IMG/VR virus record: IMGVR_UViG_3300028019_000001
Location: 1 to 13,728 of that record
Direction: 5' to 3' (one strand)
DNA: 13,728 nt
From: a virus
Notes under the pieces: model-generated
The model's database searches: none
Told to the model about the DNA's origin: nothing
Seen by the model: only the letters and a program-made list of their open reading frames with translations
Program-made: the position numbers and the translations under genes
Shown: positions 1 through 13,670 of the stretch, in pieces
How the letters are laid out: every line of letters starts with the position of its first letter
Numbering within the stretch: the first letter of the stretch is position 1

Positions 1-25
1 CCGGCGCGCACGACGCCGGATACCC
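1..25. repeat. Terminal direct repeat copy 1 (CCGGCGCGCACGACGCCGGATACCC), identical to 13704..13728
   Basis: Read directly: the first 25 nt equal the last 25 nt. The frame entering from 13667 continues with no stop into ORF 57..395. This implies a circular or terminally redundant unit of 13,703 bp. Confidence 0.9.
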
Positions 26-395
26 GGCTGCCCCGTGCGCCATCTGCGAGCGCGACATGCTGCCCGGCGAGCGCATCGCCCGCCTGCTGCCGGACTTCTG
101 CCCCGGTGGCTGCGGGGGCCTGACCGAAGACCCGTATGGGGGTCCGTGCCGGGCATGCTGGGACAAGGTGCCCGGACCGTACCCCGGTGACGAGCGGTGC
201 GACTGGTGCCAGAAGTTCCTGTCTGGTGACGGCTTCTGCGACGACGGGCGGATCTTCTGCGGTGAGGACTGTGCCGGGGCGTACGCGGCTGAATGGGGAG
301 TCGGCTTACGGTCTCTCGCGTTGACTGAACCCTGCTCACCCGGTCCGGAACACCGTCTCAGTAACGTCGGATTCCCTGGCGCCCGGTTGACGTAG
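1..395 (+). CDS. Cys-rich multi-CxxC zinc-finger-like protein, 3' portion of a wrap-around gene (start at 13667; about 143 aa once the ends are joined)
   Basis: The frame is open from position 3 to TAG at 393-395 and in phase with the ATG at 13667. Motifs present: CAIC, CPGGC, CRAC, CDWC and FCDDGRIFCGEDC (TRASH/FCS-like CxxC...CxxxC). GC3 is high up to about 300, then a low-GC3 tail follows that includes a TTA codon at 306-308. Confidence 0.75.
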   Translation, partial: GAHDAGYPAAPCAICERDMLPGERIARLLPDFCPGGCGGLTEDPYGGPCRACWDKVPGPYPGDERCDWCQKFLSGDGFCDDGRIFCGEDCAGAYAAEWGVGLRSLALTEPCSPGPEHRLSNVGFPGARLT

Positions 396-764: not shown

Positions 765-907
765 CGATCGCTACCTTCGCAACGTCGCGCCGGCCGACCT
801 GATCAAGCCCGGCCAGACGCGGACCTGGCAGCCGGGCGCCTGAGACGTCAGGCGTGAGACGCGGCCGGCGCCGCAAAGCTGAAACAGGAACCTGAAACGG
901 CCCGCGG

Positions 908-1081
908 CTACTTGCCGCCGCGCCGCCGCTTGCCGCCGAGCGGCGCTGACACGCTCGTCCAGCTCCGGCGGCCGGTGCGGACGCCCGCCGATCCCCACAC
1001 GCGGCCCTTGCCGCTTACCGGCGCGCTCAGCCGGATACGGAACGGCCCGATCTTCACGGAGTCGCTGACCCTGACGCCCAT
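908..1081 (-). CDS. DUF4236-like small protein (57 aa)
   Basis: MGVRVSDSVKIGPFRIRLSAPVSGKGRVWGSAGVRTGRRSWTSVSAPLGG follows the DUF4236 pattern as I remember it (MGxRxxxSxKIGPxxRxxLS...G...G.R.G.R...S.P..G). GGAAGGAAA sits 6-7 nt upstream of the ATG at 1081. The start is trimmed from ORF 908..1132. Confidence 0.6.
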   Translation of the reverse strand: MGVRVSDSVKIGPFRIRLSAPVSGKGRVWGSAGVRTGRRSWTSVSAPLGGKRRRGGK

Positions 1082-1177
1082 CGCGTGTTTCCTTCCCGGC
1101 CTCGGGTTGCCGAGAGTGAGACCGTCTGCCATGGAGACGCGCGGCGCGGCCTGGCGGTTGACATCGATGTCCGGCTA

Positions 1178-1193
1178 AGCGGAGCGCTCCGCT
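1178..1193. promoter_or_regulatory. Perfect 16-bp palindrome AGCGGAGC|GCTCCGCT, candidate operator
   Basis: Read directly. It lies in the 434-nt divergent non-coding region between the DUF4236 gene (start 1081, minus strand) and the first late-operon gene (start 1516, plus strand). Confidence 0.4.
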
Positions 1194-1515
1194 AGCCAAC
1201 CTTCAACCAGTACATGAAGGTTCCTGGCTGATATGCACAAGGAACCGAGCCGAAACGCGGCCATTTAGCTGCGATGTCTTGTAGATCATGGTGCCTGGCG
1301 TGGGACAATGGGAAACGTCGCCTTGCGGCGGCCCGGTGCGCTGAGCTTGCCGTACCGGGCCGCCCCCGGTGGTTGTGCAAAGAGCTGGTACCGCCTCAGA
1401 GGGCCGCCCGATCAGCGGCCGGGGCGATGAGCGGCTGAAGGCGCGCGGGGACAGGGCGGCGCAATCACTGCTGCACGCCCCTTTGCGCTGGGGCGTACCC
1501 GTGGAAGGCGACGAC

Positions 1516-1755
1516 ATGAGCTTGACCGAAGACGGCTTCTGCCCGCGGAACAGCGGGCGCCCCGATCTCTACCCGCACGCACTGCCGAAAGCCTCTGGCG
1601 CCGCGGCTGGCCGCCTGGACGAGGTGACCGAGTCCGGTGCGCAGCCGAAGCCGCAGCCCGCCGTACAGGCGCCTCCTGCGGCTGCTGCGCCGCAAGCCGC
1701 GAGTACCGTGCTCCGGCCAGCAACGGCCGCACCCGCCGCGGTGGCGACGCTGTGA
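1516..1755 (+). CDS. Hypothetical Pro/Ala-rich protein (79 aa)
   Basis: ATG at 1516 is preceded by GGAAGG 7 nt upstream. The upstream part of ORF 1369..1755 has poor GC3 (caa, aga, ggt, tca, gta). The stop overlaps the next start (GTGA at 1752-1755). Confidence 0.55.
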   Translation: MSLTEDGFCPRNSGRPDLYPHALPKASGAAAGRLDEVTESGAQPKPQPAVQAPPAAAAPQAASTVLRPATAAPAAVATL

Positions 1756-2432
1756 GGCGCGCAGAGATCCCGGACGGCCTGCTGAAGGCGCGCCGGGCGG
1801 ACATCGACCGGATCCCTGGCCGGGTGCTCGCCAAGATGACCAGGGGCGACCTGCCGGACCGTCTCGTGGCCGCTGGCGAGTACCGGCGGCGCGCGAGCGT
1901 CCCGCACCTGGACGGCGACTTGTACCGGTACCGGCTCGGCCTGGCGACCGAGGTACTGACCACCGATGACTCGCAGCGTGCCGCCGAGCTGGTCAAGGGC
2001 GCCGGAGTCGGCGTGACCATCGGCACCGGGCGCGCGGCACCGCCAGCGTCGGCGGCGGGATCCGCTGCGGGCGGCCGGGTGACGAAGGCGGCGCCCGCCG
2101 AGATCATCAGGTACCCGGCGGTCGATCTCCTGACGCAGAAAGCCGCCGCCGCGCGATCTGTCGCCGTCGCGCTGACCGAGCTGGCCAAGACGGGCCGTCT
2201 CGGCGAGCTGGGCCGAGATCTCACCAGCATGCACCGGGATATCAGTTCCGGCCGGATGGAGCTCGTCAAGGGGCCCGTGGTCGCGGGGCCGCCGGAGAAC
2301 AGCCTGGCGAAGAGCGCCGGAGCGGCAGGCCTGTCGAAGGCCGCCGAGTACGAGCGGAAAGCGGCAGTCGTGACCGATCCGGAACTGAGGCGCGGCTATC
2401 TCGAGCTGGCGCGCCAGGAGCGTGCGTCATGA
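1752..2432 (+). CDS. Hypothetical protein (226 aa)
   Basis: Strong GC3 bias throughout. GTGA overlap with the upstream gene and ATGA overlap with the downstream gene. No motif recognised. Confidence 0.8.
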   Translation: MRRAEIPDGLLKARRADIDRIPGRVLAKMTRGDLPDRLVAAGEYRRRASVPHLDGDLYRYRLGLATEVLTTDDSQRAAELVKGAGVGVTIGTGRAAPPASAAGSAAGGRVTKAAPAEIIRYPAVDLLTQKAAAARSVAVALTELAKTGRLGELGRDLTSMHRDISSGRMELVKGPVVAGPPENSLAKSAGAAGLSKAAEYERKAAVVTDPELRRGYLELARQERAS

Positions 2433-2644
2433 CGGTGACCACGCAGGTGGCGACGGCGCTGTCGGCAGCCAAGCGGTATCAGCTGGCGGTCGGCGCGACG
2501 GCCGCGCAGGCCGGATGCCCGCAGGTCCACATCACTCCCGGCTGGGTCTCAGTGCCCTGCCATGGCGCCGACATCGCCTCGTTCGGCGCGACCCTCGCGG
2601 CCGTGCTCAACAACACGGCCAACTACGGAGGAGCAGGAACATGA
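2429..2644 (+). CDS. Hypothetical protein (71 aa)
   Basis: ATGA overlaps at both ends (2429-2432 and 2641-2644). Good GC3. Confidence 0.7.
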   Translation: MTVTTQVATALSAAKRYQLAVGATAAQAGCPQVHITPGWVSVPCHGADIASFGATLAAVLNNTANYGGAGT

Positions 2645-3774
2645 GCGCGGACACCAGCGGACCGGGCCGCAGGCTGACCCCCGAGCAGGAGCAGCGCGCC
2701 GCCGAGCTGTTCGCCGCCGGGCGCAGTGAACGCGAGGTCGCCGACGAGCTCGGCTGCTCGGCGTCGACTGCGCACCGGCTGCGCGAGCGCCTGGAGCGCG
2801 CCGGCGGCACCCCTGACGAGCCGGAAGCACCGGCGGCGCCCGCTCGCGACGAGCACGAGGCCGCCGGGGCGTTCGAGCTGACCGCGCAGCACCCGCTGCG
2901 CGAGTCCCCCGGCGAGCTGGGGGAGCTTCAGGCCGAGCGCGACCGCCTCGCGGACCTCTTGCAGACCTACGGGGACCGCGCGGCAGCGAGCCGCCAGGCG
3001 CTGGCCGACCTGGAAACCGAGCGCGTGGAACTGCTCACCGAGGGGAAGGACGCGGCGCCGCTGCGGCCGAGGCGGGCGGACGCTGAGGCCGACCTCGCCG
3101 ACAGTGAGACGTCCGCGCAGATCGCCGCCGACCGAGTGGCCGCCGTCGACGTCCGCATCGCGCAGGTGCGGGCAATGCGCGACCTGGCGGAGATGCGGGA
3201 CCAGCTTGAAGCCGCGGTAGCGGAGCGGGACACCGTGTGCGCGGCTACCGGCGATCGCATGCGCGCCGCCGTGCTGGCCGTCAGGCGGGCGGCCGAGGAG
3301 TTCACGGCGGCCCTGGCCGACGAGCGCGCCGCCACGGAGCGCACGGAGCAGCTCGGGCAGGACACGGCGAACCGGGCGCTGGCTCTCGGCGAGCGCGTCC
3401 CGGTCGCGCCGCCGGCGCGCTCCACTGCCCTGTGGGTGGACAACGCCTTTTCCGCGGGGAAGCCGGTGGCGCTTTCGCGAGCGATCAGCGAGGCGCGCAT
3501 CGGGCGTACTGAGGCCGTCGCCACGTGCCTGGGTGAGGCGTTCGGCTGGCTGCCGCCGGATCCGGCCGTGATCGCCGCTGAACGCGAGCGCATGCGGCAA
3601 CTGCGCGCCGCGCCGCCCCCGCCCCCGCCTTCGGTGGAGCATCCCGCGCACTGGCCTGCCGCCGTCAGCGTCGACAGCCACGGCCGGCCGCTCGCGCCGC
3701 CCGACCCGGAACGGCAGCGCGCGCAGACGGCGGTACGTCCTGGCGCGCTCGGCTTTACGCCGTGGCCGGGCTGA
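2641..3774 (+). CDS. N-terminal HTH plus long coiled-coil protein (377 aa); the HTH resembles those of small terminase subunits and Hin/sigma-70 region 4
   Basis: The start is trimmed from ORF 2422..3774 to the ATG at 2641, which has GGAGGAG upstream and an ATGA overlap. RRLTPEQEQRAAELFAAGRSEREVADELGCSASTAHRLRERL is a classic helix-turn-helix. The rest is Ala/Glu/Arg-rich and heptad-like, with a PPPPPP tract near the C-terminus. Confidence 0.8.
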   Translation: MSADTSGPGRRLTPEQEQRAAELFAAGRSEREVADELGCSASTAHRLRERLERAGGTPDEPEAPAAPARDEHEAAGAFELTAQHPLRESPGELGELQAERDRLADLLQTYGDRAAASRQALADLETERVELLTEGKDAAPLRPRRADAEADLADSETSAQIAADRVAAVDVRIAQVRAMRDLAEMRDQLEAAVAERDTVCAATGDRMRAAVLAVRRAAEEFTAALADERAATERTEQLGQDTANRALALGERVPVAPPARSTALWVDNAFSAGKPVALSRAISEARIGRTEAVATCLGEAFGWLPPDPAVIAAERERMRQLRAAPPPPPPSVEHPAHWPAAVSVDSHGRPLAPPDPERQRAQTAVRPGALGFTPWPG

Positions 3775-3793
3775 GCGGCGCGTGACCATGACT

Positions 3794-3830
3794 CCCCGGC
3801 CTGGCTATGACGCGACCGGCCGGGCCGGGG
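3794..3830 (+). terminator. GC-rich hairpin (CCCCGGCC ... GGCCGGGG, 8-bp stem, 21-nt loop) between the HTH/coiled-coil gene and the tape-measure gene
   Basis: Read directly, 20 nt after the stop at 3774. No T-tract follows, so terminator or attenuator function is only a possibility. Confidence 0.25.
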
Positions 3831-3869
3831 ACACAAGCGGAGCACCGGCGGCCGTGAGGAGGTGAGCTG

Positions 3870-6683
3870 ATGGAAGAGGACGTCGCCCTCGCGTTCATTG
3901 CGGATGTTGAGGAAGCAGTAGCCAACGTCCGCGAGCTGCAGGAGGCATCCGCGCAGCTCGCCGAGACGGCCGAGGAATCCTCGTCGGTCGCCGAAGAGGC
4001 GTTCTCGTCGTACGTCGAGGCGTCATCGGCCGCCACGGTGGCCGCTACCGACCTTGAGGAAGCGTCGGCGCGGCTGGCCGAGGTCCAGGCCGACGCGGGC
4101 GCCAGCGCCGAGGACATAGCCGACGCGCAGACTACCTACGGCGCGGCCCTCGACCGGGCAAGCGAAGCGACCATCGCCGCGATCGACGCGCAGGAGCGCC
4201 TTGCCGCGGCCGAAGGCGAGGCGGCCGAGGCCGCCGCGGCGAGCGCGGCGACCCAGGGCGAGGCCGCCGAGACGGTGGCGGCGAAGGATGACCTGGCGGG
4301 CGACGCCGCCGAGGGCATGGGCGCCAAGTACAAGCTGGCGCTGGTGGCCGTCGCCGTCGGCGCGGGGCTGGCGGTCAAGGGCGCGATGAGCTTCCAGCAG
4401 GCCACCACGCGCCTGGTGACCACCGCGGGCGAGTCCGCCAAGAACCTGACCATGGTGCAGCAGGGCATCCTCGGCATGACGGACGCCACCAACCAGAGCG
4501 TCACCAGCCTCTCCAGCGGCATGTACATGGTGGAGTCGGCCGGGTTCCACGGTGCCGCGGGCCTCGAGGTGCTGAAGGCCGCCGGGCAGGGCGCGGCGAT
4601 GGAGCAGGCCAACCTGTACGACGTCGCCAACGCGGTCACGTCCGGCCTGAACGCCTACGGGCTCAGCGCCAGCCACGCCACCAGCTTCACCCAGCAGATG
4701 CTGGCCACCGTCGGCCAGGGCAAGATGACGATGGAAGACCTGGCGTCGTCGCTGTCCGCCGTGCTGCCCTTCGCCGCCGCCGCGCACATCTCGTTCGACC
4801 AGGTGGGCGGCGCGCTCGCCACGATGACCGGTATGGGCATGTCGGCGCAGCAGTCCACGCAGGACCTGGCCAACGTGATCCGGAACATCCTCAAGCCGTC
4901 CGGGACCGCCTCGGCTGAGATGCGCGCCCTCGGCCTGAACGCTAACGAGGTCAGCGCCAGCGTCGGCAAGGTGGGGCTGACCGGCGTGATGCAGGAGTAC
5001 ACCGACGCCATCCTGAAGAACACCAGCGGCGGCATGGTGATGCTCGGCTACATGAAGGAGATGACCCCGCAGGCGCAGGGGCTCGCCCGCGAGATCATGG
5101 CAGGGACGATCAGCACCCAGCAGCTGCGGACAGCGGTGTACGGCCTGAATCCGGAACAGGCCAAGCTGATCAGCCTGTTCGAGACGGCGGCGACGTCGGC
5201 GACGGGCCTCAAGCAGACCTATGCGGGCGCGATGGCCGAGCTGACCGGCGGCGCGACCGGCCTGAACGTGGCGCTGATGCTGACCGGCAGCCACGCGAAA
5301 ACCTTTGCCGACAACGTGAAGACGATCGGTGCCGCAGCGAAGACCAGCGGCAGCGACGTCGCCGGGTGGGGCGCCTACCAGAAGCAGGCGGGCGTCGAGC
5401 TGAGCGAGCTCGTCAAGACGACGGAGGCGATGGGCGACGAGCTCGGCCTGGTGCTGCTGCCTGCCCTCGAAGCCGTTCTCGGCCCGCTGCGTGACCTGTT
5501 CGGCGTGATCGCCCGCAACCGTGCCGCGGCGATCGCCTTCGCCCTCGTCATCGGCACCGTGCTGTCGGGGGTCGCCTTCGTCAAGCTCAAGAACGTCCTG
5601 ACCGAGGCGAAGGACGGGTTCAGCGCGCTCTACGACGTGGTGACCGGCCTCCCGGCCGCCGCGTCATCCGTCGTGTCGTTCGCCTCCACCGTGGCGCAGG
5701 GCCTCTGGCGGGCAACCGTGGCCACGGGAACGTGGATAGCCGAGCACGCCGTCGCGACCGCGCAGTTCATCGCGCAGAACATCGCGCAGGCCGCCAGCGC
5801 GATGGCCGCGTTCGTGGCCGAGAACCTCGCCACGCTCGGTATCGGCATCGCGATCGTCGCGCTGATCGCGGTCATCGTGCTGCTGGCCACGCACTGGAAA
5901 GAGGTCTGGTCGGTCGTCAAGACGGTCGGCCTCGACGCCTGGCACTTCATCGACGGCCGCCTGATCCAGCCGTTCATGGCCGGGGCCGACGAGCTGGTCA
6001 AGTGGGTCGATTCGCACTGGCGGCTGCTCGCGGCGATCATTTCCACGGTGCTGCTGGGGCCGGCGGAATTCCTGATCTCGTTCATCGCGGCGCGCTGGGC
6101 GGAGTTCGCGCGCCTGACGTCGCAGGTCACCGACGCGGTGACCGGGTACTTCGGGCGGCTGCCGGGCCGGATCCTGTCGCAGCTGGCCGCGCTGCCGGCC
6201 GGGTTGTACAACATGGGTCGCAACATCGTCATGGGCCTCATTCACGGCATCGAGGACCAGGCGGGCCCGCTGCTGTCGTACGTCGGCGGCCTCGCCGGTG
6301 ACGTCGAGCACACCTTCGCGTCCGCGCTGCACATCTTCAGCCCCAGCCGCGTCTTCTTCATGCACGGCGTCAATACCATGCTCGGCTACATCAACGGCGT
6401 CAAGTCGATGGCGGCGCAGGTGAAAGCGACGATGGCCGGCGTCGGCGGCCAGGTGGCGGCGGCCGGGACCGGCACCGGCGCCGCGCTCATGCCAGCGGGC
6501 AGCACGGCCGGCGGCAGGATCAATGTCACGGTGCCGCTGTCCGTGGCGTTCAACGCCGGGACGAGCGGTCTCAACTCGCCGCAGTTCTACCAGTACATCC
6601 AGGCCGCCGTTCAGGAAGCCGTGCTCCGGTGGGGGCTGAACAACCCCGGTACCGGGTTCGTGCTCCCAGGGAGGGCCGGATGA
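3870..6683 (+). CDS. Phage tail tape-measure protein (937 aa), TP901-type core
   Basis: GAGGAGG RBS at 3856-3862. Acidic Ala-rich N-terminus. The core KYKLALVAV...FQQATTRLVTTAGES...MYMVESAGFHGAAGLEVLKAAGQGAAMEQANLYDVANAVTSGLNAYGL...MEDLASSLSAVLPFAAAAHISFDQVGGALATMTGMGMSAQQSTQDLANVIRNIL matches the tape-measure core family as I know it. Several hydrophobic helices lie in the C-terminal half. Confidence 0.92.
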   Translation: MEEDVALAFIADVEEAVANVRELQEASAQLAETAEESSSVAEEAFSSYVEASSAATVAATDLEEASARLAEVQADAGASAEDIADAQTTYGAALDRASEATIAAIDAQERLAAAEGEAAEAAAASAATQGEAAETVAAKDDLAGDAAEGMGAKYKLALVAVAVGAGLAVKGAMSFQQATTRLVTTAGESAKNLTMVQQGILGMTDATNQSVTSLSSGMYMVESAGFHGAAGLEVLKAAGQGAAMEQANLYDVANAVTSGLNAYGLSASHATSFTQQMLATVGQGKMTMEDLASSLSAVLPFAAAAHISFDQVGGALATMTGMGMSAQQSTQDLANVIRNILKPSGTASAEMRALGLNANEVSASVGKVGLTGVMQEYTDAILKNTSGGMVMLGYMKEMTPQAQGLAREIMAGTISTQQLRTAVYGLNPEQAKLISLFETAATSATGLKQTYAGAMAELTGGATGLNVALMLTGSHAKTFADNVKTIGAAAKTSGSDVAGWGAYQKQAGVELSELVKTTEAMGDELGLVLLPALEAVLGPLRDLFGVIARNRAAAIAFALVIGTVLSGVAFVKLKNVLTEAKDGFSALYDVVTGLPAAASSVVSFASTVAQGLWRATVATGTWIAEHAVATAQFIAQNIAQAASAMAAFVAENLATLGIGIAIVALIAVIVLLATHWKEVWSVVKTVGLDAWHFIDGRLIQPFMAGADELVKWVDSHWRLLAAIISTVLLGPAEFLISFIAARWAEFARLTSQVTDAVTGYFGRLPGRILSQLAALPAGLYNMGRNIVMGLIHGIEDQAGPLLSYVGGLAGDVEHTFASALHIFSPSRVFFMHGVNTMLGYINGVKSMAAQVKATMAGVGGQVAAAGTGTGAALMPAGSTAGGRINVTVPLSVAFNAGTSGLNSPQFYQYIQAAVQEAVLRWGLNNPGTGFVLPGRAG

Positions 6684-7039
6684 CGCAGGAAGAACTACTC
6701 GGGGCGGCCAGCGCGCTCCGGTTCGTCCTGTGGTCGGTAGACCACGGTCAATGGCTCGCGGCCGGCGGCGATCCGGCCGACGCGCCGCCGTGCCCCGTAA
6801 CCAGCGCCGAGCTTGCGGGGCTGGCCGCTCCGCTCGCGGGCCTTGTCGTCAGCGCCCGGCTTGAGCTCGCGCGGCAGCTCGGCCAGGTCGGCTACAGCGA
6901 GCAGTCCCAGGCCGCGCGCGCCTGGCTCCAGACTGAGCTGGAGGGCGTGGAAATCGCCGCGTCGTTCGCCGCCGTCGACGGCGAGACGGCAGGCCCGCAG
7001 CCCCAACTCCTAGCAAACCCCAACTCCAGTCAGGACTAG
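6680..7039 (+). CDS. Hypothetical protein (119 aa)
   Basis: ATG at 6680 has an ATGA overlap with the tape-measure stop and GGGAGGG upstream. Good GC3 except for the last ~12 codons. Confidence 0.7.
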   Translation: MTQEELLGAASALRFVLWSVDHGQWLAAGGDPADAPPCPVTSAELAGLAAPLAGLVVSARLELARQLGQVGYSEQSQAARAWLQTELEGVEIAASFAAVDGETAGPQPQLLANPNSSQD

Positions 7040-7050
7040 GAGTTCCTGAC
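7001..7050. repeat. Repeat-dense low-GC junction: CCCCAACTCC x2 (7001-7010, 7018-7027), inverted AACTCCTAG/CTAGGAGTT (7005-7013 / 7036-7044), hairpin GTCAGGA-N8-TCCTGAC (7029-7050)
   Basis: Read directly. The TAG stop of gene 6680..7039 sits in the hairpin loop. Confidence 0.6.
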
Positions 7051-7074
7051 GGCATCCGCGACTGAGGCTTCTGA

Positions 7075-7570
7075 CAGGAGATCGCGGCCGAGGCGTACCT
7101 GCGGACGGCCGCGCAGCTCGCCCGTGAGACGGAGCACGACGAGATCGCGGCGTGGTGCGCCGAGACCCGCGCGTGGCAGGCGCTGACCCGCGGCGGCTAC
7201 CGCGAGGCCGTCGCCCTGGCGCGCGCCGCGCAGGAGATCGCCCCGCAGCACAGCAGCGCGTACATCCAGCCGGTCGCGCAGGAAGGGCGCGCGGCACGGG
7301 ACATCCTCGGCGCGCTGGAGCGCCCGGACGGCGGATCGCCGCGCCCGCGCCGGATCGCGCTCGCCCGGCTCGACCTCGGCCTGGCGCTCGTCACCGCGGG
7401 AAAGCTCGACGAGGCGACCGAGGTTGCCCTCGCCGCGGTGCGCTCTGGCCGCCTGGCGCCCGTCGACGCGCCGCGCGTCCGCGAGATCGCCGCCGCGGTG
7501 TCCGGCACGCCGGACGGCCGCGAGCTGGCCGAGGCGTACCGGACCCCGCGCGGCGAGATTCCCCCTGACG
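7075..7570 (+). pseudogene. Start-less C-terminal remnant of an XRE-family/TPR-type transcriptional regulator
   Basis: The frame opens after TGA at 7072-7074 and contains no ATG/GTG/TTG until GTG at 7438. It nevertheless has strong GC3 and reads EIAAEAYLRTAAQLARETEHDEIAAWCAETRAWQALTRGGYREAVALARAAQEIAPQHSSAYIQPVAQEGRA...PRPRRIALARLDLGLALVTAGKLDEATEVALAAVRSGRL...RELAEAYR. From memory, this resembles the C-terminal half of ~400-aa Streptomyces XRE/TPR regulators. The N-terminal HTH is absent and there appears to be an internal deletion. The 3' boundary is approximate. Confidence 0.55.
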
Positions 7571-7587
7571 TCCTGAGATCGGAGTGT

Positions 7588-7612
7588 GCGGGTTCGAGTC
7601 CCGCCCGGCTGC
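7588..7612 (+). other. tRNA 3'-end-like segment (T-arm GCGGG-TTCGAGT-CCCGC plus 7-nt acceptor-like CCGGCTG and one further base); not a complete tRNA
   Basis: Canonical GGTTCGAGTCC T-loop with a perfect 5-bp stem, read directly. I could not fold an anticodon arm, D-arm or matching 5' acceptor strand upstream. It is therefore a fragment, possibly an att-core relic. Confidence 0.45.
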
Positions 7613-7630
7613 CCCGCCTAGCATGGGCGC

Positions 7631-7948
7631 ATGAGCGAACCACTCGCACGATACGAGTTCCCGCCGGGGGCCAAGATCATCTCGTACTGCCCGCTGTGCT
7701 CGTGGCAGCACCACGACGGGCCGCTGCCGGAAGGGTCCGGGGCGACCGCCGACGAGGTGGCCGCGGACATCCTGGCGAAGCACTTCGCTGCCCTCGAGGA
7801 GATCAGCCGGGCTCACCTGGAAACCCATTCGCTCCTGGAGTGGGCACAGGAAGTGACGCGGCTCGGGGGCGAGGCGGCACGGCTCGAGGTCGAGGCGGAA
7901 CGGCTGCGCGGGATCGTGGCCGAACTAACTCCGAAACAGCGGGCGTGA
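7631..7948 (+). CDS. Hypothetical protein (105 aa) with one CxxC and a C-terminal coiled-coil
   Basis: Good GC3 in this frame, in contrast to the overlapping ORFs 7438..8001 and 7391..7828. No clear Shine-Dalgarno sequence. Confidence 0.7.
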   Translation: MSEPLARYEFPPGAKIISYCPLCSWQHHDGPLPEGSGATADEVAADILAKHFAALEEISRAHLETHSLLEWAQEVTRLGGEAARLEVEAERLRGIVAELTPKQRA

Positions 7949-8117
7949 AACAGGTGAAGCAACCCTATCCGGACAGGAAGTGCCCTCAATTCCTGTCCTG
8001 ACCTGCGGAAATGCCGTCCGTTTGGCGTATCGCCAGGTGAAACAGCTCGTGGCCTGAAACTGTTTCTTTCCCAGGTCAGAGCCGGTTTTACGGTGCTCGG
8101 CGCGCTGCTGTTTCACC
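7933..8117. repeat. Cluster of GAAACAG / GTGAAACAG motifs in both orientations
   Basis: GAAACAG at 7933-7939. GTGAAACAG at 7945-7953 and 8037-8045. CTGTTTC at 8060-8066, within GAAAC-T-GTTTC at 8056-8066. CTGTTTCAC at 8108-8116. GGTGAAACAG (8036-8045) is the exact reverse complement of CTGTTTCACC (8108-8117). Confidence 0.7.
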
Positions 8118-8176
8118 GGCGCGCATGACGGCGCCCCGTCGCTCAAGGGAGCAGGCGGGGCGCTGTCTCGGCCGGG

Positions 8177-8437
8177 TCACACGTGGTCGTCGGCCCACTC
8201 GCCGCTCTTACGGTCGAGCAGCGGCTTGCGGTAGTGCGCGCCATGGTGCTCCTCCAGCTCCATCAGCACGTCGGCCAGCGCGTGAATGAGCACGCGGCGG
8301 GCGCGCTGGTCAGTCACGCTGGCGAGCCGCTGGCCGCTCTTGAAAGCGAAGACAACGGGCCGCACGGCCCACCGCAGGTACGCGCCCGCGGCGAGCACGG
8401 CCGCCGCGATGATGCCGGTAATGATCAAGATGTTCAC
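8177..8437 (-). CDS. Small membrane protein (86 aa from GTG), N-terminal transmembrane helix
   Basis: Start trimmed from ORF 8177..8536 to the GTG at 8437 (VNILIITGIIAAAVLAAGAYL...), with GGGGA upstream. The upstream extension is Arg-rich and overlaps a strong hairpin. The exact start is uncertain. Confidence 0.6.
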   Translation of the reverse strand: MNILIITGIIAAAVLAAGAYLRWAVRPVVFAFKSGQRLASVTDQRARRVLIHALADVLMELEEHHGAHYRKPLLDRKSGEWADDHV

Positions 8438-8484
8438 AATCGTCCCCACTCGGGTTATCTCACGTCTTCGGGAAACCGGGCGCC

Positions 8485-8525
8485 GGGGGGGCGGGACGTC
8501 CGCTGAGCAGACGCCCCGCGCCCCC
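8485..8525. terminator. GC-rich imperfect hairpin (14 pairs across a 16-position stem, 9-nt loop)
   Basis: GGGGGGCGGGACGTC (8486-8500) pairs with GACGCCCCGCGCCCC (8510-8524), extended by G8485-C8525; mismatches at 8490/8520 and 8496/8514. It lies between the nuclease remnant and the small membrane gene on the minus strand. No T-tract. Confidence 0.3.
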
Positions 8526-8561
8526 TGGCGGTTCACTCGCGGGCCACCGCGCCGTTTTCAG

Positions 8562-9014
8562 CTACGGAGCGGGTGCCCGCCGGGGCGCGGCCACCGTGCC
8601 GTCCTTGAATACGGCGCGGGTGCCACTGTCGGGAGCTGTCAGACGGGCATCCGGTGCCGTCGCCGGTACCGGAGGGTGGCGCGCCGGTTGCGCCGCCGCC
8701 GGGCCTTGTCGGCGTTGATCACGGCGGCCCCGGCGAGCGCTCTGACGCCAGCCTCGACCACCTCGGGACACGTGGCCCACAGCCATGCTGCCGAGGATCA
8801 TGCCGTGCACGACCGTGCCGAGATCCATGCTCTTGGTCGACTGTTTCGGATGCCGCCGGAAGTGGTCGAAGATCGCCGGGCAGTTCGGGGGCATCAGCAG
8901 CCGCGAACTGGTGACCGACAGCGACCCGCCGTCGACGGGATCAGCGTGGTACTGGTCTTCGGGGATGTCGCCGTAGAGGCCGGGTTCGGTGATGGTGCCG
9001 GTGAACTCAGGCAT
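8562..9014 (-). CDS. PD-(D/E)XK nuclease-like (RecE/DUF3799-type) protein, N-terminal part only; probable frameshift near 8780 and truncation (pseudogene candidate)
   Basis: ATG at 9014 has a GGAGGAG RBS and an 8-nt overlap with the upstream stop. GLYGDIPEDQYHADPVDGGSLSVTSSRLLMPPNCPAIFDHF...MDLGTVVHGMILG matches the conserved N-terminus of this family as I remember it. After ILGS the called frame becomes Arg-rich with poor GC3. The +1 frame (..CPEVVEAGVRALAGAAVINADKARRRRNRRATLRY.., stop at 8639-8641) carries the GC3 signal. No catalytic D...ExK region is visible. Confidence 0.55.
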   Translation of the reverse strand: MPEFTGTITEPGLYGDIPEDQYHADPVDGGSLSVTSSRLLMPPNCPAIFDHFRRHPKQSTKSMDLGTVVHGMILGSMAVGHVSRGGRGWRQSARRGRRDQRRQGPAAAQPARHPPVPATAPDARLTAPDSGTRAVFKDGTVAAPRRAPAP

Positions 9015-9234
9015 CGGGCGCTCCTCCGGTTTCGGCGGGGCGCAGGTTGTAGGTCTGGTAGTCGTCGCAGTAGCCGGGGCAGGTGCAGCCGCCGCACGCG
9101 AAGCAGTGCTGGTGGTCGCATTGCCACTGGTCGAAGTCGTCGTAGCAGGCTTCGTCGCAGTCGTGCTCGCAGGGCTCCGCCTCGTAATCGCAGGGCTCCG
9201 CCTCGTAATCGCCGTCGTACAGCTGACTAGCCAT
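9007..9234 (-). CDS. Hyper-acidic Cys-rich small protein (75 aa: 10 Cys, 12 Asp, 7 Glu, 1 Arg, 0 Lys)
   Basis: Start trimmed to the ATG at 9234 (GGGGGA RBS, 8-nt overlap with the upstream stop). Sequence: MASQLYDGDYEAEPCDYEAEPCEHDCDEACYDDFDQWQCDHQHCFACGGCTCPGYCDDYQTYNLRPAETGGAPDA. Confidence 0.7.
   Translation of the reverse strand: MASQLYDGDYEAEPCDYEAEPCEHDCDEACYDDFDQWQCDHQHCFACGGCTCPGYCDDYQTYNLRPAETGGAPDA
9169..9210. repeat. Perfect 21-bp tandem duplication (GCAGGGCTCCGCCTCGTAATC x2) encoding DYEAEPC x2
   Basis: Read directly: 9169-9189 equals 9190-9210. In frame within CDS 9007..9234. Confidence 0.9.
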
Positions 9235-9532
9235 CGGTCCCCCTGCCTGCGGTGGTCTTGAGTGCACCGCACCAGCCGGATTCCATGCACGGCACGACGC
9301 AGACGCAGTCGCCGGGGTCGCCGATCTCGGTGAGGTCGCTGCAGAACCCGCACGGCTCGATACGGGCGAGCTCGTCGGCGAGCTCCCCGGCACGGCGCAG
9401 GACGATCCGGAGGCCGACCGCGATCAGGCAGAGCACCAGGCCGGCAGGCAGGCCCCACGGCCATCCGGCCGCAGCGCCGATCGCGGCCGCGGCGGCGACG
9501 CAGACCAGGGCGTACGGCAGGTGGCGCCTCAC
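9227..9532 (-). CDS. Membrane protein with Cys-rich C-terminal domain (101 aa)
   Basis: GTG at 9532 with a GTGA overlap with the upstream stop. Hydrophobic LPYALVCVAAAAAIGAAAGWPWGLPAGLVLCLIAVGL is followed by CGFCSDLTEIGDPGDCVCVVPCMESGWCG. Confidence 0.7.
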   Translation of the reverse strand: MRRHLPYALVCVAAAAAIGAAAGWPWGLPAGLVLCLIAVGLRIVLRRAGELADELARIEPCGFCSDLTEIGDPGDCVCVVPCMESGWCGALKTTAGRGTDG

Positions 9533-9984
9533 TGGCGTTCCCCTTCCTCGCCGCACTCCAGGCACCGGTAACCCGGATACGGTGACCCTTGGCATGTGCC
9601 GCAGGTGTACTCGCCGATCATCGTGATGAGGGTGCTGCCGACGACGCTGGCGAGCTTGGCGGCGATGTCGAGCGAGACGTTGGTGCCGTTGACGGCCCGG
9701 GCGATGGTCGGCGCGCTGACTCCGGCGCGTTCCTCCAGTTCGCCCTGTGTCCACCCGAGTGCGCGCAGCCGGGCGCGCAGGTGGGTGGCGTAGCGGGCCA
9801 TCACATCCGGTGTCTCCGGCTTGTCTCCCGTGCCATCGCCGCATACGGAGCAGTTGCCGGAGTCGCAGTAGTGACTAGCAGGGACGGGTGTTTCCTCCGC
9901 CTCCGCGTTGGCTCCCGGCATGCTGGCCAGCACGCGGGCGGCGATCGCGCCGCGGTTCGGACGCGGGTAGAGGTCGTCGGTCAT
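9529..9984 (-). CDS. XRE-family helix-turn-helix protein flanked by Cys clusters (151 aa); candidate repressor/regulator
   Basis: ATG at 9984 with an ATGA overlap. LRARLRALGWTQGELEERAGVSAPTIARAVNGTNVSLDIAAKLASVVG is a typical HTH_3/XRE motif. HYCDSGNCSVCG lies upstream of it and CGTCQGSPYPGYRCLECG (CxxC-N9-CxxC zinc-ribbon pattern) lies downstream. Confidence 0.8.
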   Translation of the reverse strand: MTDDLYPRPNRGAIAARVLASMPGANAEAEETPVPASHYCDSGNCSVCGDGTGDKPETPDVMARYATHLRARLRALGWTQGELEERAGVSAPTIARAVNGTNVSLDIAAKLASVVGSTLITMIGEYTCGTCQGSPYPGYRCLECGEEGERQ

Positions 9985-10238
9985 ACCCACCACTCCCCCC
10001 ACCGGTTGAGCCGGTCGTTCAGCCGGGCTTTCAGGTGCCGGCGGCCGACGCCGTGCACCACGCCGACGGGGCACTGATCGGGGCCGAGGTTGTCGGCGTA
10101 GGGCCGCAGCGTGGCCTCCCACACGCGCCCCAGGCCGTCGACGCGAATGCGCCGGATGTCGGCGACGACCCGGCCGCCGCAGGTGGCGACGGGGTTACGC
10201 CACAGCCGCCGCCACCGCTTGATCCGGATGGTGCTCAT
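9981..10238 (-). CDS. Hypothetical basic protein (85 aa)
   Basis: ATG at 10238 with an ATGA overlap with the upstream stop, and the stop overlaps the next start. Good GC3. ORF 9981..10523 trimmed. Confidence 0.7.
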   Translation of the reverse strand: MSTIRIKRWRRLWRNPVATCGGRVVADIRRIRVDGLGRVWEATLRPYADNLGPDQCPVGVVHGVGRRHLKARLNDRLNRWGEWWV

Positions 10239-10516
10239 GACGCGCCGCCCGGCAATGCAAGCTGCTCGCCGTCGGTGAACACCTGCTCGTCGCGGCGCGC
10301 GCCGAACGACGGCCCGGCGTAGGCGTAGCGGGCCGTCTTGCGGCGCAGTTCGCGGCCGAGGCGGGCGAGCAGCACCAGGCGGCGCGGCCACCGCGCGGCG
10401 GCGATCTCCTCCAGCGCGATGATCCGGGCCTCGAGGTGGCTCAGCTTCTCCTCGGTGACGTACTCCGACCACACGGCATCGCGGGCGAACTGCTCGGCGT
10501 CGAACGGGGCGCTCAC
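10235..10516 (-). CDS. Hypothetical protein (93 aa), paralogue of 10513..10860
   Basis: GTG at 10516 with a GTGA overlap. FDAEQFARDAVWSEYVTEEKLSHLEARIIALEEIAAARWPRRLVLLARLGRELR aligns with LDVERFARASNYQSWLTDWAISALEDRVVRIEELIAARWWQRPGVRRKLARELR in the upstream gene. Confidence 0.75.
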   Translation of the reverse strand: MSAPFDAEQFARDAVWSEYVTEEKLSHLEARIIALEEIAAARWPRRLVLLARLGRELRRKTARYAYAGPSFGARRDEQVFTDGEQLALPGGAS

Positions 10517-10860
10517 AGGGCATCCTCGCTGCCAGCGTTCCGGGCGCGGGTCACCTGCGGGATCCGCACCTCGCCTGCGTACTGCACGCGGCGGGTCGCG
10601 AAGTCGCGCGGCATCCAGTCGCCGTACCCGGCGACCGAGGCGCGCAGCTCGCGCGCCAGCTTCCGGCGCACGCCGGGCCGCTGCCACCAGCGGGCGGCGA
10701 TCAGCTCCTCAATGCGGACAACGCGGTCCTCGAGCGCGCTGATCGCCCAGTCGGTGAGCCAGCTCTGATAGTTGCTCGCGCGGGCGAACCGCTCGACATC
10801 GAGCGGTTCGCGCAGCGCTGCGTTCTCCTCGCGCAGGCGATCGGTCGCGGTTGCGGCCAT
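10513..10860 (-). CDS. Hypothetical protein (115 aa), first gene of the leftward operon, paralogue of 10235..10516
   Basis: ATG at 10860 with a GAGGAG RBS 5 nt upstream. Strong GC3. Confidence 0.8.
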   Translation of the reverse strand: MAATATDRLREENAALREPLDVERFARASNYQSWLTDWAISALEDRVVRIEELIAARWWQRPGVRRKLARELRASVAGYGDWMPRDFATRRVQYAGEVRIPQVTRARNAGSEDAL

Positions 10861-10914
10861 TACGCTCCTCAGGTCGGAGCGTCAGACAAGGATAATCCTC
10901 GCGGTACGTTGCCT

Positions 10915-10940
10915 CGTGACCTGCGTTTTAGCAGGTCACG
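10915..10940. promoter_or_regulatory. Perfect 10-bp inverted repeat CGTGACCTGC-GTTTTA-GCAGGTCACG, candidate operator of the leftward operon
   Basis: Read directly. It lies 55-80 nt upstream of the ATG at 10860, in the 403-nt divergent control region. Confidence 0.5.
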
Positions 10941-11070
10941 CACGTAGCTTAGGCTTGGATACGGGATGAGTAGCCGGTCTGACGCCATCGGTTGAATTAG
11001 CCGCTTGAGCTGGCACTTCTCCGCTCAAGTGGCATCACTATTGCACGCGCGTAGTTGCTCTGTCAAGTAT

Positions 11071-11131
11071 CCGTGTTTCGCGGGACATGAGACCTCGCAC
11101 CGTGCTTCCGGTGTTTGCGGGACATCCGACC
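11071..11131 (+). repeat. Two imperfect 24-nt direct repeats, CCGTGTTTCGCGGGACATGAGACC (11071-11094) and CCGGTGTTTGCGGGACATCCGACC (11108-11131)
   Basis: Read directly. The shared core is GTGTTT(C)GCGGGACAT..GACC, with copies 37 bp apart, in the divergent control region upstream of the rightward operon. Confidence 0.6.
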
Positions 11132-11263
11132 AATCGGCCATAGTGAGCATCGTCCGTGGAACTACACGGAGGTTTTTACCCGAAGACCGCTGGAATGTCA
11201 GTGGCCTCGGTCATCCTGAATCCGGCACACGACACCCGTGGGCTACTACGCACGTAAGTCCCG

Positions 11264-11626
11264 ATGCACAGGACGGTGATCACGATAACAGCTTCATCTA
11301 CGCGCGCCCCCAACCCGGATTACCCCCCGACGCGCACCACACCCGGCGCCCTGGCCCGCCTCGTGACCGAGGACTGGTCCCGGATGACCGCCGCGGCCAA
11401 CGCCAGCCCCAACCACGTCGGCAGCGCCGAGCGGTGGACGAAGAAGGCCCGCGAGGCTAATCCCGCGCTCGACGACAACCAGGCGTACCGCCTCGGCCAG
11501 CTCCTCAAGCGGCAGTTCTACCAGGCCATCGGAAGGAAGTCCGCCGAGGCCCGCCGACTCGCCCGCGACGCACAGCGGATCGAAACCGAGGCCCGGGCCG
11601 AGCTCGCCAGCGCCGAGGCGGGCTGA
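11264..11626 (+). CDS. Hypothetical protein (up to 120 aa), first gene of the rightward operon
   Basis: GC3 bias from about 11300 onward. No Shine-Dalgarno sequence before the ATG at 11264, so it may be leaderless; alternative starts are GTG 11276 or the ATG near 11384. C-terminal helical region: QAYRLGQLLKRQFYQAIGRKSAEARRLARDAQRIETEARAEL. Confidence 0.6.
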   Translation: MHRTVITITASSTRAPNPDYPPTRTTPGALARLVTEDWSRMTAAANASPNHVGSAERWTKKAREANPALDDNQAYRLGQLLKRQFYQAIGRKSAEARRLARDAQRIETEARAELASAEAG

Positions 11627-11666
11627 CCGGCCGCTCATGCCTTACCCGCTAAGATCATCGGTATCG

Positions 11667-11690
11667 GGCGGCCCTATCGCCAGGGCCGCC
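11667..11690 (+). terminator. GC-rich hairpin GGCGGCCCT-ATCGCC-AGGGCCGCC (9-bp stem)
   Basis: Read directly, 41 nt after the stop at 11626. No T-tract follows; I recall such terminators being described in high-GC actinobacteria, but this is unproven here. Confidence 0.35.
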
Positions 11691-11890
11691 GACGCTGTCA
11701 CAAAGGCCATGGCCACCGCGAAGAGCGCCCGCGAGGCGCTAGAGGCGGGCGCGCCGGCGAAGGTGAAGGCGGAGCCGTACAGGCCGCGCGGTGCTCTTGC
11801 CGCGCCTGATGGCCTGCGCATCCCATACCCGCGCGGTCGCTGTGGTGAATCCTGCCCGCCGACCGGCCCTCACCCCCGGAGGCCGCACCC

Positions 11891-12121
11891 ATGCCCGAAC
11901 GACGACAGCGGAATGTCCGCCCTGAGATTGCCAGCGCCCGCGCTCGCCTCGCCGCGCTGACCGCGCGCCGCGCTGATCCCGACGCCATCGCGACCGCCAG
12001 GGCCGCCCTCGCGTCCGCCAGGGCGCGAGCCGCGGTATGCGAGCTGCTCGGCCTGCCCGCGGCCGAGCGTATGCAGCTCGCCGGGCTCTTGCTCACCGGG
12101 AGCGGTGGCGATGGCACCTGA
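11891..12121 (+). CDS. Hypothetical Ala/Arg-rich helical protein (76 aa)
   Basis: GGAGG lies 8 nt upstream of the ATG. Good GC3. Confidence 0.65.
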   Translation: MPERRQRNVRPEIASARARLAALTARRADPDAIATARAALASARARAAVCELLGLPAAERMQLAGLLLTGSGGDGT

Positions 12122-12226: not shown

Positions 12227-12934
12227 ATGGGCGCATCGAACGCGCTCCGCGCCTACTCGACGTACGCGGCCAGGGTTTCTCCCGCATCGCTCAGCGTGCT
12301 GGTCTACATGGCCCTGGTGTCGATGGACAAGGACGCCGAGCCCTGGTGGTCGCAGGGACACGAGATACTCGCCGCCATACCGCTCGGACGCAGGGGGCCG
12401 ATCAGGAACGCCGACCTGCGCGCCGTCGAACGGGCCATCACGTCACTGTTTGAGGCCGGGGCCATCACGGTCGATAAGCACTCTTCCGGACATCCGGGGA
12501 ATTCGCAGCACGTCCGCTACCGGCTCTGGCTCACCCATCCCGCACCCGACGAAAACCGTCGTGTGGAAAACCGGGCCGCACCCGACGAAAACCGTCGTGT
12601 GGAAAACCGGGCCGCACCCGACGAAAACCGTCGGGCGCCAGGTGATGGCACCCGACGAAAAGTGGTCTCGCACCCGACGAAAAGTGGTCTCGCACCCGAC
12701 GAAAACCGTCGGGCTAAGGAGACAGAGGAGGACGAGGAGCTAAATAACAAGCAGGATGAAGATGACGCTCGACGTACGACCCGTACAGGTTTCGCGCGTG
12801 GGGACGCGGGCGACGACAACGAGAATTTCGACAATTTCCGGCTGGACGAAGAAGCCGAGCGGCGCCGCCAGCTCGACGCCCTCACCGAATGGATGCGGCA
12901 GCATCCCGAGCAGGCCGAGGCGGTGACGCCATGA
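12227..12934 (+). CDS. Replication initiator-like winged-helix protein (235 aa), lambda-O-like architecture with its binding-site array inside the gene
   Basis: The N-terminus LRAYSTYAARVSPASLSVLVYMALVSMDKDAEPWWSQGHEILAAIPLG...RAVERAITSLFEAGAITV is typical of wHTH phage/plasmid initiator-like proteins (from memory). The central part is encoded by the iteron array and the C-terminal third is acidic. An ATGA overlap links it to the next gene. Confidence 0.75.
   Translation: MGASNALRAYSTYAARVSPASLSVLVYMALVSMDKDAEPWWSQGHEILAAIPLGRRGPIRNADLRAVERAITSLFEAGAITVDKHSSGHPGNSQHVRYRLWLTHPAPDENRRVENRAAPDENRRVENRAAPDENRRAPGDGTRRKVVSHPTKSGLAPDENRRAKETEEDEELNNKQDEDDARRTTRTGFARGDAGDDNENFDNFRLDEEAERRRQLDALTEWMRQHPEQAEAVTP
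12542..12714 (+). repeat. Iteron array: six copies of GCACCCGACGAAAA (starts 12542, 12578, 12614, 12648, 12670, 12692); candidate origin of replication
   Basis: Read directly. There are two perfect 36-bp units and one 34-bp unit, then two perfect 22-bp units (GCACCCGACGAAAAGTGGTCTC) and a final copy. Four copies contain the dyad CGACG-AAAAC-CGTCG. An AT-rich stretch at about 12715-12850 follows (GAGCTAAATAACAAGCAGGATGAAGATGAC, AATTTCGACAATTTCC). Confidence 0.85.
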
Positions 12935-13191
12935 TCGTCACCACGACCAACGGCGACCTCGCCGCGCTCGCCCGGGCCGAGCTGGAGCGCCACAAGGCCC
13001 GCACACCGCAGCGGCATGCCGCCGCGATGCTGTGGGTCGCGCTCATCACCACAGAGACCGCCGGCAGCGCCAGGCGGGCACTGGACACGTTCGGCACCGG
13101 CCAGGGCCGCAGCGGCGCGCTCGAGCTGCTCGGGCGCCTCATCGTCGCCATCGGCCAGGACCACGACGCCGCGAAGGACACCGCGCCATGA
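12931..13191 (+). CDS. Hypothetical protein (86 aa)
   Basis: ATG at 12931 with ATGA overlaps at both ends. Trimmed from ORF 12889..13191. Confidence 0.7.
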   Translation: MIVTTTNGDLAALARAELERHKARTPQRHAAAMLWVALITTETAGSARRALDTFGTGQGRSGALELLGRLIVAIGQDHDAAKDTAP

Positions 13192-13670
13192 CCACGACCA
13201 TCACCGTCTACGGCCAGCCCGCGCCGCAGGGCAGCAAGCGCGCGTTCGCCGTACGCGGCAAAGGCGGGGTACCCACCGGCCGCGTCGCCGTCATCGAGTC
13301 ATCGCACGACCGCGTTAAGAGCTGGCGTCAGGCTGTCATCGACGCCGCGGTCTCCGTGCGTCCTGATGTCCCGCTGCACGGCCCGCTCGCCGTCGAGATG
13401 ACGTTCCTCATGCCGAGGCCGAAAGGCCACTACGGCACCGGCCGCAACGCCGGGAGGCTCCGCGACAGCGCCGCGGAGCGCCCATCCGGGAAACCCGACC
13501 TGTCCAAGCTGCTGCGCGCCACCGAAGACGCCCTCACCGACGCCGGAATGTGGGCCGACGACGCCCAGGTCGTCGAGTACGCGCGGCTGGCCAAGACCTA
13601 CGCCGACCACCGGCCGCCTGGCGCCGTCATCACCATCCGAACCCTCGAGTCAGGAGACACAACGCCATGA
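13188..13670 (+). CDS. rusA: RusA-family crossover junction endodeoxyribonuclease (160 aa)
   Basis: ATG at 13188 (ATGA overlap). ITVYGQPAPQGSKR..., then PLAVEMTFLMPRPKGH, then GKPDLSKLLRATEDALTDAGMWADDAQV. This matches the RusA pattern (PDxDNLxKxxxDAL....DD) including the acidic catalytic residues. Confidence 0.9.
   Translation: MTTTITVYGQPAPQGSKRAFAVRGKGGVPTGRVAVIESSHDRVKSWRQAVIDAAVSVRPDVPLHGPLAVEMTFLMPRPKGHYGTGRNAGRLRDSAAERPSGKPDLSKLLRATEDALTDAGMWADDAQVVEYARLAKTYADHRPPGAVITIRTLESGDTTP

Follow-up and report, generated by a model that had tools for sequence, protein, structure and literature searches.

The window analysed here is the whole 13,728-nucleotide stretch of the IMG/VR virus record IMGVR_UViG_3300028019_000001 (positions 1 to 13,728), and the gene in question, at 3870..6683 on its plus strand, encodes a tape-measure protein (TMP) of 937 aa in a capsid-less element built on a backbone related to that of the actinomycete integrative and conjugative elements (AICEs). 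This association is real and amounts to more than chance. The mechanism is proposed from sequence: the element may be an episome of AICE kinship that lives at the expense of a helper siphophage, to which it would contribute a TMP of its own, a reading that we prefer tentatively and with less than even confidence.

The TMP open reading frame (ORF) consists of 937 uninterrupted codons, begins with an ATG that has GGAGG ahead of it, i.e. its own ribosome-binding site, and shows clean coding periodicity with a G+C fraction at third codon positions of 0.93. Residues 200-383 match PF10145 (PhageMin_Tail; E 1.7e-20), and the protein matches 19 PHROG tape-measure families, the best at 2.7e-37; by tblastn, it has distant matches among the TMPs annotated in phages of Arthrobacter, Microbacterium and Rhodococcus. 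When a profile of the TMP and its relatives was compared with PDB, residues 865-1083 of gp57, the TMP of phage 80alpha (6v8i), were matched with E 2e-11, which is the C-terminal, baseplate-embedded part of that solved TMP, and Gp14 of 9m8o with E 4e-10. The N-terminus is an acidic coiled coil, four hydrophobic segments are found at residues 155-175, 550-574, 644-680 and 718-741, and the C-terminal region, of the baseplate type, is followed by a conserved C-terminal tail. Taken together, these features identify the product as a genuine, full-length TMP of the siphophage type. The usual genomic setting of such a gene, from the tail assembly chaperones (G/GT; TAC) to the distal tail genes, was not found around it, with no TAC, Dit or Tal matches; it is flanked upstream by g377, with a helix-turn-helix (HTH) and a coiled coil, and downstream by a 119-aa protein and then a gene remnant. 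Scanning genomes with the TMP alignment returned only TMPs that are 30-47% identical, in Streptomyces, Kitasatospora, Catenulispora, Kutzneria and others, with no other gene of the window near them, and the IMG/VR scan with the TMP returned ordinary phage contigs only.

The closest relatives of the TMP occur in different settings. P0002 lies in phage L004, where the structural module is an ordinary one that includes genes for a prohead protease, a scaffold-like protein, the tube and the neck, and P0005 adjoins a capsid gene in L006. The window and the L004 gene begin to match at the DNA level 14 nt ahead of the ATG and cease to do so 8 nt short of the stop codon, and the genes on either side show no relation. 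Along the gene, identity is 98-100% over 4366-4770 (aa 166-300) and 96-99% over 5946-6445 (aa 693-859), falls to 60-85% in most other segments, and is essentially nil over 5566-5846. The later of the two near-identical tracts corresponds to the region that aligns to the baseplate-embedded part of the solved TMPs. Such patchwork identity indicates that the gene has very recently recombined, in frame, with the TMP pool of phages. A third relative, P0004, is the 925-aa TMP (59% identical to that of the window) of a small island at 1763-15094 of L005, which also carries a tyrosine integrase, a Gp49/HTH toxin-antitoxin pair, SocA_Panacea, an HNH gene, the small terminase subunit (TerS), four small genes, a second HNH gene and an esterase/lipase; no head gene is among them, and no large terminase, portal or capsid gene was seen in the 15 kb. 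This island is a candidate TMP-encoding satellite similar to the EPIPs, TMP-carrying satellites of 11 kb from Mycolicibacterium aichiense, for which a TMP-dependent hijacking of tails has been proposed (preprint PMC12822802).

The element itself is a closed 13.7-kb unit, circular or possibly tandem, and no fragment of a larger phage, because it ends in a repeat and three assemblies match. The terminal direct repeat, an assembly overlap at 1..25, is 100% identical to 13704-13728, so that the window closes as a circle of 13,703 bp, of which the TMP gene takes up 2,814 bp (20.5%). The same element is present in three public assemblies, namely a MEGAHIT k141 contig (L001) of 13,786 bp, in which a unit of 13,645 bp is extended by an overlap of 141 nt, a JGI contig (L002), which is linear, independent and spans the junction between the end and the start of the window, and a Logan contig; the three records are approximately 100% identical and possibly come from one sample. 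Their only difference is of 58 nt in the iteron region (about 5026-5083 of L001), by which the call for the replication initiator is cut to 152 aa in the k141 contig as compared with 235 aa in the window; it is probably due to repeat collapse during assembly, but could be real variation in copy number. Further evidence that the ends are contiguous comes from g143, a Cys-rich, multi zinc-ribbon protein of 143 aa with a weak DZR_2 match, the gene of which bridges the junction (13667-13728 plus 26-395, plus strand; 57..395 as called in the window) and is called whole in L001 and L002. An assembly artefact, in the form of either an incomplete or chimeric part of some larger phage genome or a chromosomal unit amplified in tandem, might still be suspected from the near identity of records that may share one sample, from the 58-nt difference and from a circular map that a tandem array would also produce. 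It is, nevertheless, highly improbable, as all three assemblies give one closed or permuted unit of 13.6-13.7 kb and the gene order is that of an independently sampled island, L044, described below. The element comes from a soil actinomycete; its G+C content is 70%, and the pattern of G+C at codon positions is that of an actinomycete. Nothing in the phage and plasmid collections was matched by megablast of the whole window, searches of it for tRNAs and Rfam families came back empty, and PADLOC found nothing real in it, leaving a known defence system unsupported.

The Pfam and PHROG scans covered all 23 other called products, and outside the TMP the only matches were to HTH_23, HTH_3 and RusA, to the O-like initiator, to a zinc ribbon and to the fragments of a TPR protein and of an exonuclease VIII, the latter truncated. 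Hidden Markov model scans, protein sizes and two AlphaFold 2 (AF2) models agree in revealing no capsid, portal, terminase, tail-tube, baseplate or lysin gene in the window. No ORF besides the TMP exceeds 377 aa and, beyond g377, g226 and the 235-aa initiator, all products are of 160 aa or less; these remaining products, the initiator included, are therefore too small for an HK97-fold capsid protein, a portal or a large terminase. The Walker-A motif [AG]xxxxGK[ST] is absent from all six reading frames of the window, which accordingly holds no TraB/FtsK-type translocase; neither a P-like helicase loader nor a helicase of its own was matched, in keeping with the lack of a P-loop, and no integrase or att site is found in the window. 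These results bear out much of what a sequence-only reading of the same DNA had claimed, namely that a tape-measure gene fills about 20% of a 13.7-kb replicon in which capsid, portal, terminase, tail, baseplate and lysin genes are missing and no called protein carries a Walker-A motif. The completeness that it had made a condition of its argument is supported by the end repeat and the three assemblies.

The arrangement is not peculiar to the window. Searches with g377 identified 37 homologues of 340-400 aa, the loci of which have several window genes in common. In L044, homologues of g120, g76, the initiator, g86, g226, g377, the TMP, g119 and g57r follow each other in the same order, with a TMP of 1006 aa that is 40% identical to that of the window. 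The L044 island measures 15,018 bp and is bounded by 29-nt direct repeats (3991-4019 and 19009-19037); the repeat overlaps the stop codon of a sigma-70 gene (principal-sigma-factor-like, adjoining dnaG) and rebuilds its ...LREYLD* end. It carries an integrase and GntR regulators, and no capsid, terminase or other virion gene, no TraB and no P-loop protein was found in it. The 3′ end of a sigma gene is an unusual target beside the tRNA sites that the AICE relatives use; a tRNA-Asn gene, initially considered as the L044 attachment site, was rejected in favour of the 29-nt repeat. L054 has an integrase, xis, g84, g226 and g377, with a TMP-like gene of 794 aa and a homologue of g119 (61%), so that g119 is retained in both L044 and L054, and in L046 a 692-aa TMP-like gene directly follows g377. 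L053 contains a TMP-like gene, called at 554 aa, which is frameshifted with an unreadable C-terminus, along with a D5_N/primase-helicase. Two regions of L052, 11181-13475 and 15268-17268, hold a full-length TMP-like gene, of about 765 aa over three frames, and TraB-like/DUF2637 genes; both are split over several frames, which could reflect either indel errors of long reads or true pseudogenes. In all five (L044, L046, L052, L053 and L054) the TMP-like gene stands directly after g377 and matches PHROG TMP families. At least five relatives at 40-60% amino acid identity keep the g226-g377-TMP-g119 operon with an intact TMP-like ORF, none of them with head genes. A metagenome scan with the g377 alignment added two short contigs only. 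The family to which the window belongs has not been described before; its members are small elements of soil actinomycetes, of about 14-15 kb, integrative or episomal, with an AICE-related backbone.

These relatives weigh on the idea that the element is a decaying prophage or phage-plasmid, which replicates through its O-like module and of which the TMP is the last structural gene left. Decay would account for the TPR fragment that has no start, for the truncation of the exonuclease VIII gene and for the poorly coding stretch of about 1.1 kb; genes of phage type are also present, namely those for the Cro/CI-type regulator, the O-like initiator and RusA. Decay would not explain why a capsid-less architecture, with an intact TMP-like ORF and its conserved neighbours, recurs in at least five relatives at that level of identity, an att-bounded island included, nor why the TMP has kept 937 uninterrupted codons and a ribosome-binding site of its own, with recombination tracts that are recent and in frame. 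Simple prophage decay is for these reasons quite unlikely.

Within the family, each TMP allele is nearer to other TMPs than to those of the other members, which indicates repeated exchange of alleles. The part conserved across the family is the C-terminal half, and an extreme C-terminal motif, VTVP..NSPQFYQ..VQEA.LRYG..NPGTG..PGRG, is common to the window, L044, L046, L052, L054 and phage L004, and absent from the TMPs of L005 and L006. As judged from these alignments, the slot is conserved and the allele in it is swapped, with the C-terminal type tying the family to L004-like phages. The same features would also suit an anti-phage device, in which a look-alike TMP, perhaps with g119, would compete in tail assembly or block TMP-mediated DNA entry, protecting the host and the element: the alleles track local phage TMPs by recombination, the family-conserved part is the C-terminal half, no packaging functions would be required, and satellite defences aimed at tail assembly are known, e.g. 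Rta of PLE11, one of the PLEs, elements resembling phage-inducible chromosomal islands. A TMP decoy is, on the other hand, without precedent, a full-length, undamaged gene of 2.8 kb would be a costly one, and PADLOC lends it nothing, so that we regard interference as unlikely.

The backbone on which the TMP sits leads to the AICEs. The g84-g226-g71-g377 module and g75 have homologues in L045 and L049-51, typical AICEs in which an integrase gene adjoins tRNA-Arg and is accompanied by an xis of the HTH_17 type, a Pif-like NUDIX gene, a replication gene of the DnaB or DUF3631 type and DUF2637; in L045 and L049, proteins of 678-682 aa contain GAIPRQGKT and ATQRP, which are motifs of TraB/FtsK translocases. 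No TMP was found in L045 and L049-51. More widely, an integrase is present in L044, L045, L049, L053 and L054. In the g377 tree the TMP-bearing and the TraB-only members are intermixed, so that the TMP slot looks like a feature of the family; that TMP and TraB might be mutually exclusive in it was considered and rejected, L052 carrying both. The window is, thus, an AICE relative that has no integrase or TraB and has a phage TMP.

By taking into account this kinship, it may be asked whether the element is an AICE-derived plasmid in which the TMP-like protein does a job outside virions, serving the element's own transfer or intramycelial spread as a conduit through membrane or cell wall, with TraB provided in cis or in trans. 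Genes shared with AICEs that have TraB, DUF2637, NUDIX and tRNA integration, the presence of both TMP-like and TraB-like genes in L052, the intermixed g377 tree, the four hydrophobic segments of the TMP and the small membrane proteins g90 and g101 would all suit such a role. The window has, however, no TraB and no P-loop protein, and its TMP forms no diverged, private clade, but has near-identical tracts and the C-terminal type in common with a true phage TMP; furthermore, literature searches gave no link between TMPs and AICEs or AICE transfer. A conduit of this kind appears doubtful. Of similarly low probability, in our estimate, is the broader proposal that g226-g377-TMP-g119 marks a new class of elements between AICEs and satellites, equipped with TraB, a pirated TMP or both, which would record a switch in evolution from mating to tail-mediated transfer or, alternatively, would use the TMP as a DNA conduit that needs no virion.

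The TMP gene is part of an operon with the order g84-g226-g71-g377-TMP-g119; the start/stop overlaps of 4 nt between neighbouring genes are in line with the tight coupling remarked on earlier. Upstream lies a conserved non-coding leader of about 200 nt (1317..1512, plus strand), which at the DNA level is 79% identical to its intergenic counterpart in the TraB-type L049-51, the adjoining proteins being only about 45% identical. It has no Rfam match, and alignment, covariation and fold analysis gave no clear RNA structure; it could be a conserved leader or operator, or else a cis-acting site for transfer or packaging. All genes of the operon are on the plus strand. The first, g84 (1501..1755), encodes a small protein with N-terminal homologues in L045, L046, L054 and L055. 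The second, g226 (1752..2432; 24 homologues), encodes a helical protein with a conserved 88-aa N-domain and the C-terminal motif AAEYERKAxVVTDPExRxGYLELAxxER; its AF2 model (pLDDT 80) contains helices only, and yielded no significant Foldseek match in BFVD, as did profile searches of PDB. The small protein g71 (2429..2644), with homologues in L045, L046 and L049, is translationally coupled to g226 and g377. The g377 product (2641..3774) matches Pfam HTH_23 (7.8e-7), and is all-helical in its AF2 model (pLDDT 83), with an N-terminal HTH, a long coiled-coil hairpin and a small helical C-domain; Foldseek against PDB gave generic HTH matches only, none significant. Searches of phages with g226 and g377 by tblastn gave no match. 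Coupled to the TMP stop codon, g119 (6680..7039) has homologues after the TMP in L044 (50%) and L054 (61%), and belongs to a tiny family, of 13 small-protein clusters among 1.84 billion representatives; its profile has no significant match in PDB. Thus, no cryptic capsid fold, which it had been suggested might hide among these products, emerged from the structure and profile comparisons of g226, g377 and g119. EncB, which appeared in the PDB profile searches for g119 and g226 with E 0.4-0.6, was disregarded, and kinship of g119 with the 102-aa gene that follows the L005 TMP was rejected, the two being unrelated.

A weaker lead connects g226 with the head module of L004. The C-terminus of the g226 family aligns to that of an L004 protein of 413 aa (hhalign probability 84%, E 7e-6), encoded between the protease and the putative capsid gene; the middle of the 413-aa protein has its matches in stretches of Gordonia and Microbacterium phages that bear the annotation 'capsid maturation protease'.

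In the mechanism that we tentatively prefer, a helper siphophage of the L004 type would grow in the cell that harbours the element, the TMP of the element would replace or join that of the helper to give chimeric tails, and the element would leave in particles made by the helper. The g226 protein might mimic the C-terminus of the scaffold and g377 might bind DNA, and g119 might have a part as well. Parasitism of a helper is favoured by the presence of a genuine full-length TMP with a baseplate-type C-terminal region, by the DNA tracts nearly identical to the TMP gene of a real siphophage, by the relatives that keep the TMP slot, L044 being att-bounded and without virion genes, by the alignment of the g226 family to the L004 head-module protein, and by the precedent of PLEs and EPIPs, to which L005, with integrase, HNH, TerS and TMP and no head genes, may be added. 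Several findings weigh against it. The dN/dS ratio of 0.4-0.8 with respect to the L004 TMP is not that of a strongly constrained gene, and some of the TMP-like proteins of the family are short (692-794 aa) and do not contain PF10145. TerS, HNH, cos/pac similarity, tail chaperone and hub were not found in the window, the L004 stretch with which it was compared being one without the terminase/cos region. The g226/g377 module is also present in TMP-less, TraB-type AICEs (L045 and L049), so that its genes are not phage-specific, L052 carries a TraB-like gene in addition to the TMP-like one, the element holds gene remnants, and IMG/VR scans with g377, as a single sequence and as an alignment, returned no relatives of the family. 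Three explanations had been offered in the sequence-only reading. On the present evidence a satellite with its own tape measure fits best, given the L004 tracts and the precedent of TMP-encoding satellites, and decay has been weakened by the relatives and the att-bounded island. A membrane protein co-opted by a plasmid-like replicon gains some support from the kinship with AICEs, which had been missed there, with the satellite still preferred.

Comparison with known systems helps to place the element. PLEs incorporate their own TMP and hub into chimeric tails along with parts of phage ICP1, and putative tmp genes are also found in PLE-like elements and in cf-PICIs, the phage-inducible chromosomal islands that form capsids (PMC12987554). 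Like the PLEs of Vibrio cholerae, PLE11 included, the window is a small, capsid-less mobile element with a full TMP gene related to that of a phage, in a family that is integrative; PLEs differ in encoding a tail assembly chaperone and a baseplate hub and in parasitising a myovirus, the sequences are unrelated, and the host of the window is an actinomycete. With the EPIPs it has in common an actinobacterial origin, a circular contig in the range of 11-14 kb, the presence of the TMP and the absence of tail-tube and lysis genes, but it has no counterpart of the TerS, the adaptor and stopper between head and tail, the scaffolding protein and the serine integrase that EPIPs encode, and L005 is closer to them than the window is. 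To AICEs of the pSAM2/SLP1 type it is similar in size and in the backbone module g84-g226-g71-g377 with g75, and relatives of the window show integrase, xis, NUDIX, GntR and integration at tRNA genes or the 3′ end of a gene; the window differs by the absence of integrase, TraB/FtsK, NUDIX and GntR, and a phage TMP has not been reported for AICEs. The Streptomyces satellites MiniFlayer, MulchRoom and Ando (13-17 kb, helper-dependent; PMC10690885, PMC13587820) are likewise small and of the Streptomycetales, and are its mirror image, with capsid and packaging genes and no tail genes as opposed to a tail gene and no capsid. As in satellite P4, the family occurs as an episome (the window) and as an island (L044) with its own initiator, and the D5_N/primase-helicase of L053 resembles P4 alpha; in contrast, P4 acts on the capsid (Sid, Psu), carries the cos site of its helper and has no TMP.

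The remainder of the element is concerned in part with replication. From a divergent intergenic control region of lower G+C (10861..11263), with one sigma-70-like site at 11066-11037, the replication operon is read rightward and another operon leftward. The former opens with g120 and g76 (11264..12121, plus strand), which are 64% and 69% identical to integrase-adjoining genes of L044, and continues with a lambda-O-like initiator of 235 aa (12227..12934, plus strand; phrog_391, 4.5e-5). Four 36-nt iterons lie within the initiator gene at 12540-12725; the protein is 62% identical to the initiator of L044, and the iteron core is common to both. These are followed by the small g86 (12931..13191, plus strand), a gene call that is coupled to the initiator and has homologues in relatives, and by a RusA-type Holliday-junction resolvase (13188..13670, plus strand; Pfam 2.5e-12, phrog_140 1.2e-28). 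For its replication the element is predicted to rely on the lambda-O-like initiator, which would act on the iterons that its own gene contains. A lambda-like replication module, as formerly proposed, is borne out for the O-like initiator and RusA, and not for a P-like loader, which is missing.

The leftward operon (9007..10860, minus strand) consists of six overlapping small genes: g75, which is Cys-rich/acidic and has a 77% identical counterpart in the tra/spd operon of L049; g101, a membrane protein; g151, an HTH_3 regulator of the Cro/CI type; g85; and the paralogues g93 and g115. The latter are in tandem (10235-10860, minus strand), with DNA repeats at 10480-10515/10779-10814 (81%) and 10372-10412/10668-10708. 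Gene remnants, the existence of which had also been pointed out, are represented by the C-terminus of a TPR-type regulator (7075..7650, plus strand), with coding periodicity and no start codon, and by a truncated exonuclease VIII/RecE-like gene (8562..9014, minus strand), of which residues 5-76 match positions 132-200 of a 440-position profile, the first approximately 76 residues being followed by an Arg/Pro-rich, out-of-frame tail. Between them are two small gene products, g105 (7631..7948, plus strand), from the gene call, and g90 (8177..8449, minus strand), a membrane protein by its hydrophobicity. Within the poorly coding segment 396-1500 (about 1.1 kb), the small conserved ORF g57r (908..1081, minus strand) is 57% identical to a 54-aa ORF of L044. 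In L044 the g57r homologue directly follows that of g119, so that the window seems to have been rearranged between g119 and g57r.

Satellites that encode a TMP have been demonstrated only in 2025-2026, in the Vibrio PLEs and, at preprint level, in the Mycolicibacterium EPIPs. Virus-detection pipelines miss elements of the present kind, to judge from the IMG/VR scans. Here, a defined partner lineage of phages, of the L004 type, is available, with which segments of the TMP gene have recently been exchanged. If the TMP instead had a virion-free role in transfer or acted as an anti-phage decoy, a new function for a core phage protein would be at hand. If parasitism of a helper is true, piracy at the level of the tail would extend to soil actinomycetes on an AICE-derived backbone, and the family would offer a tractable case of a mobile element that switches between conjugation and hitch-hiking on phages.

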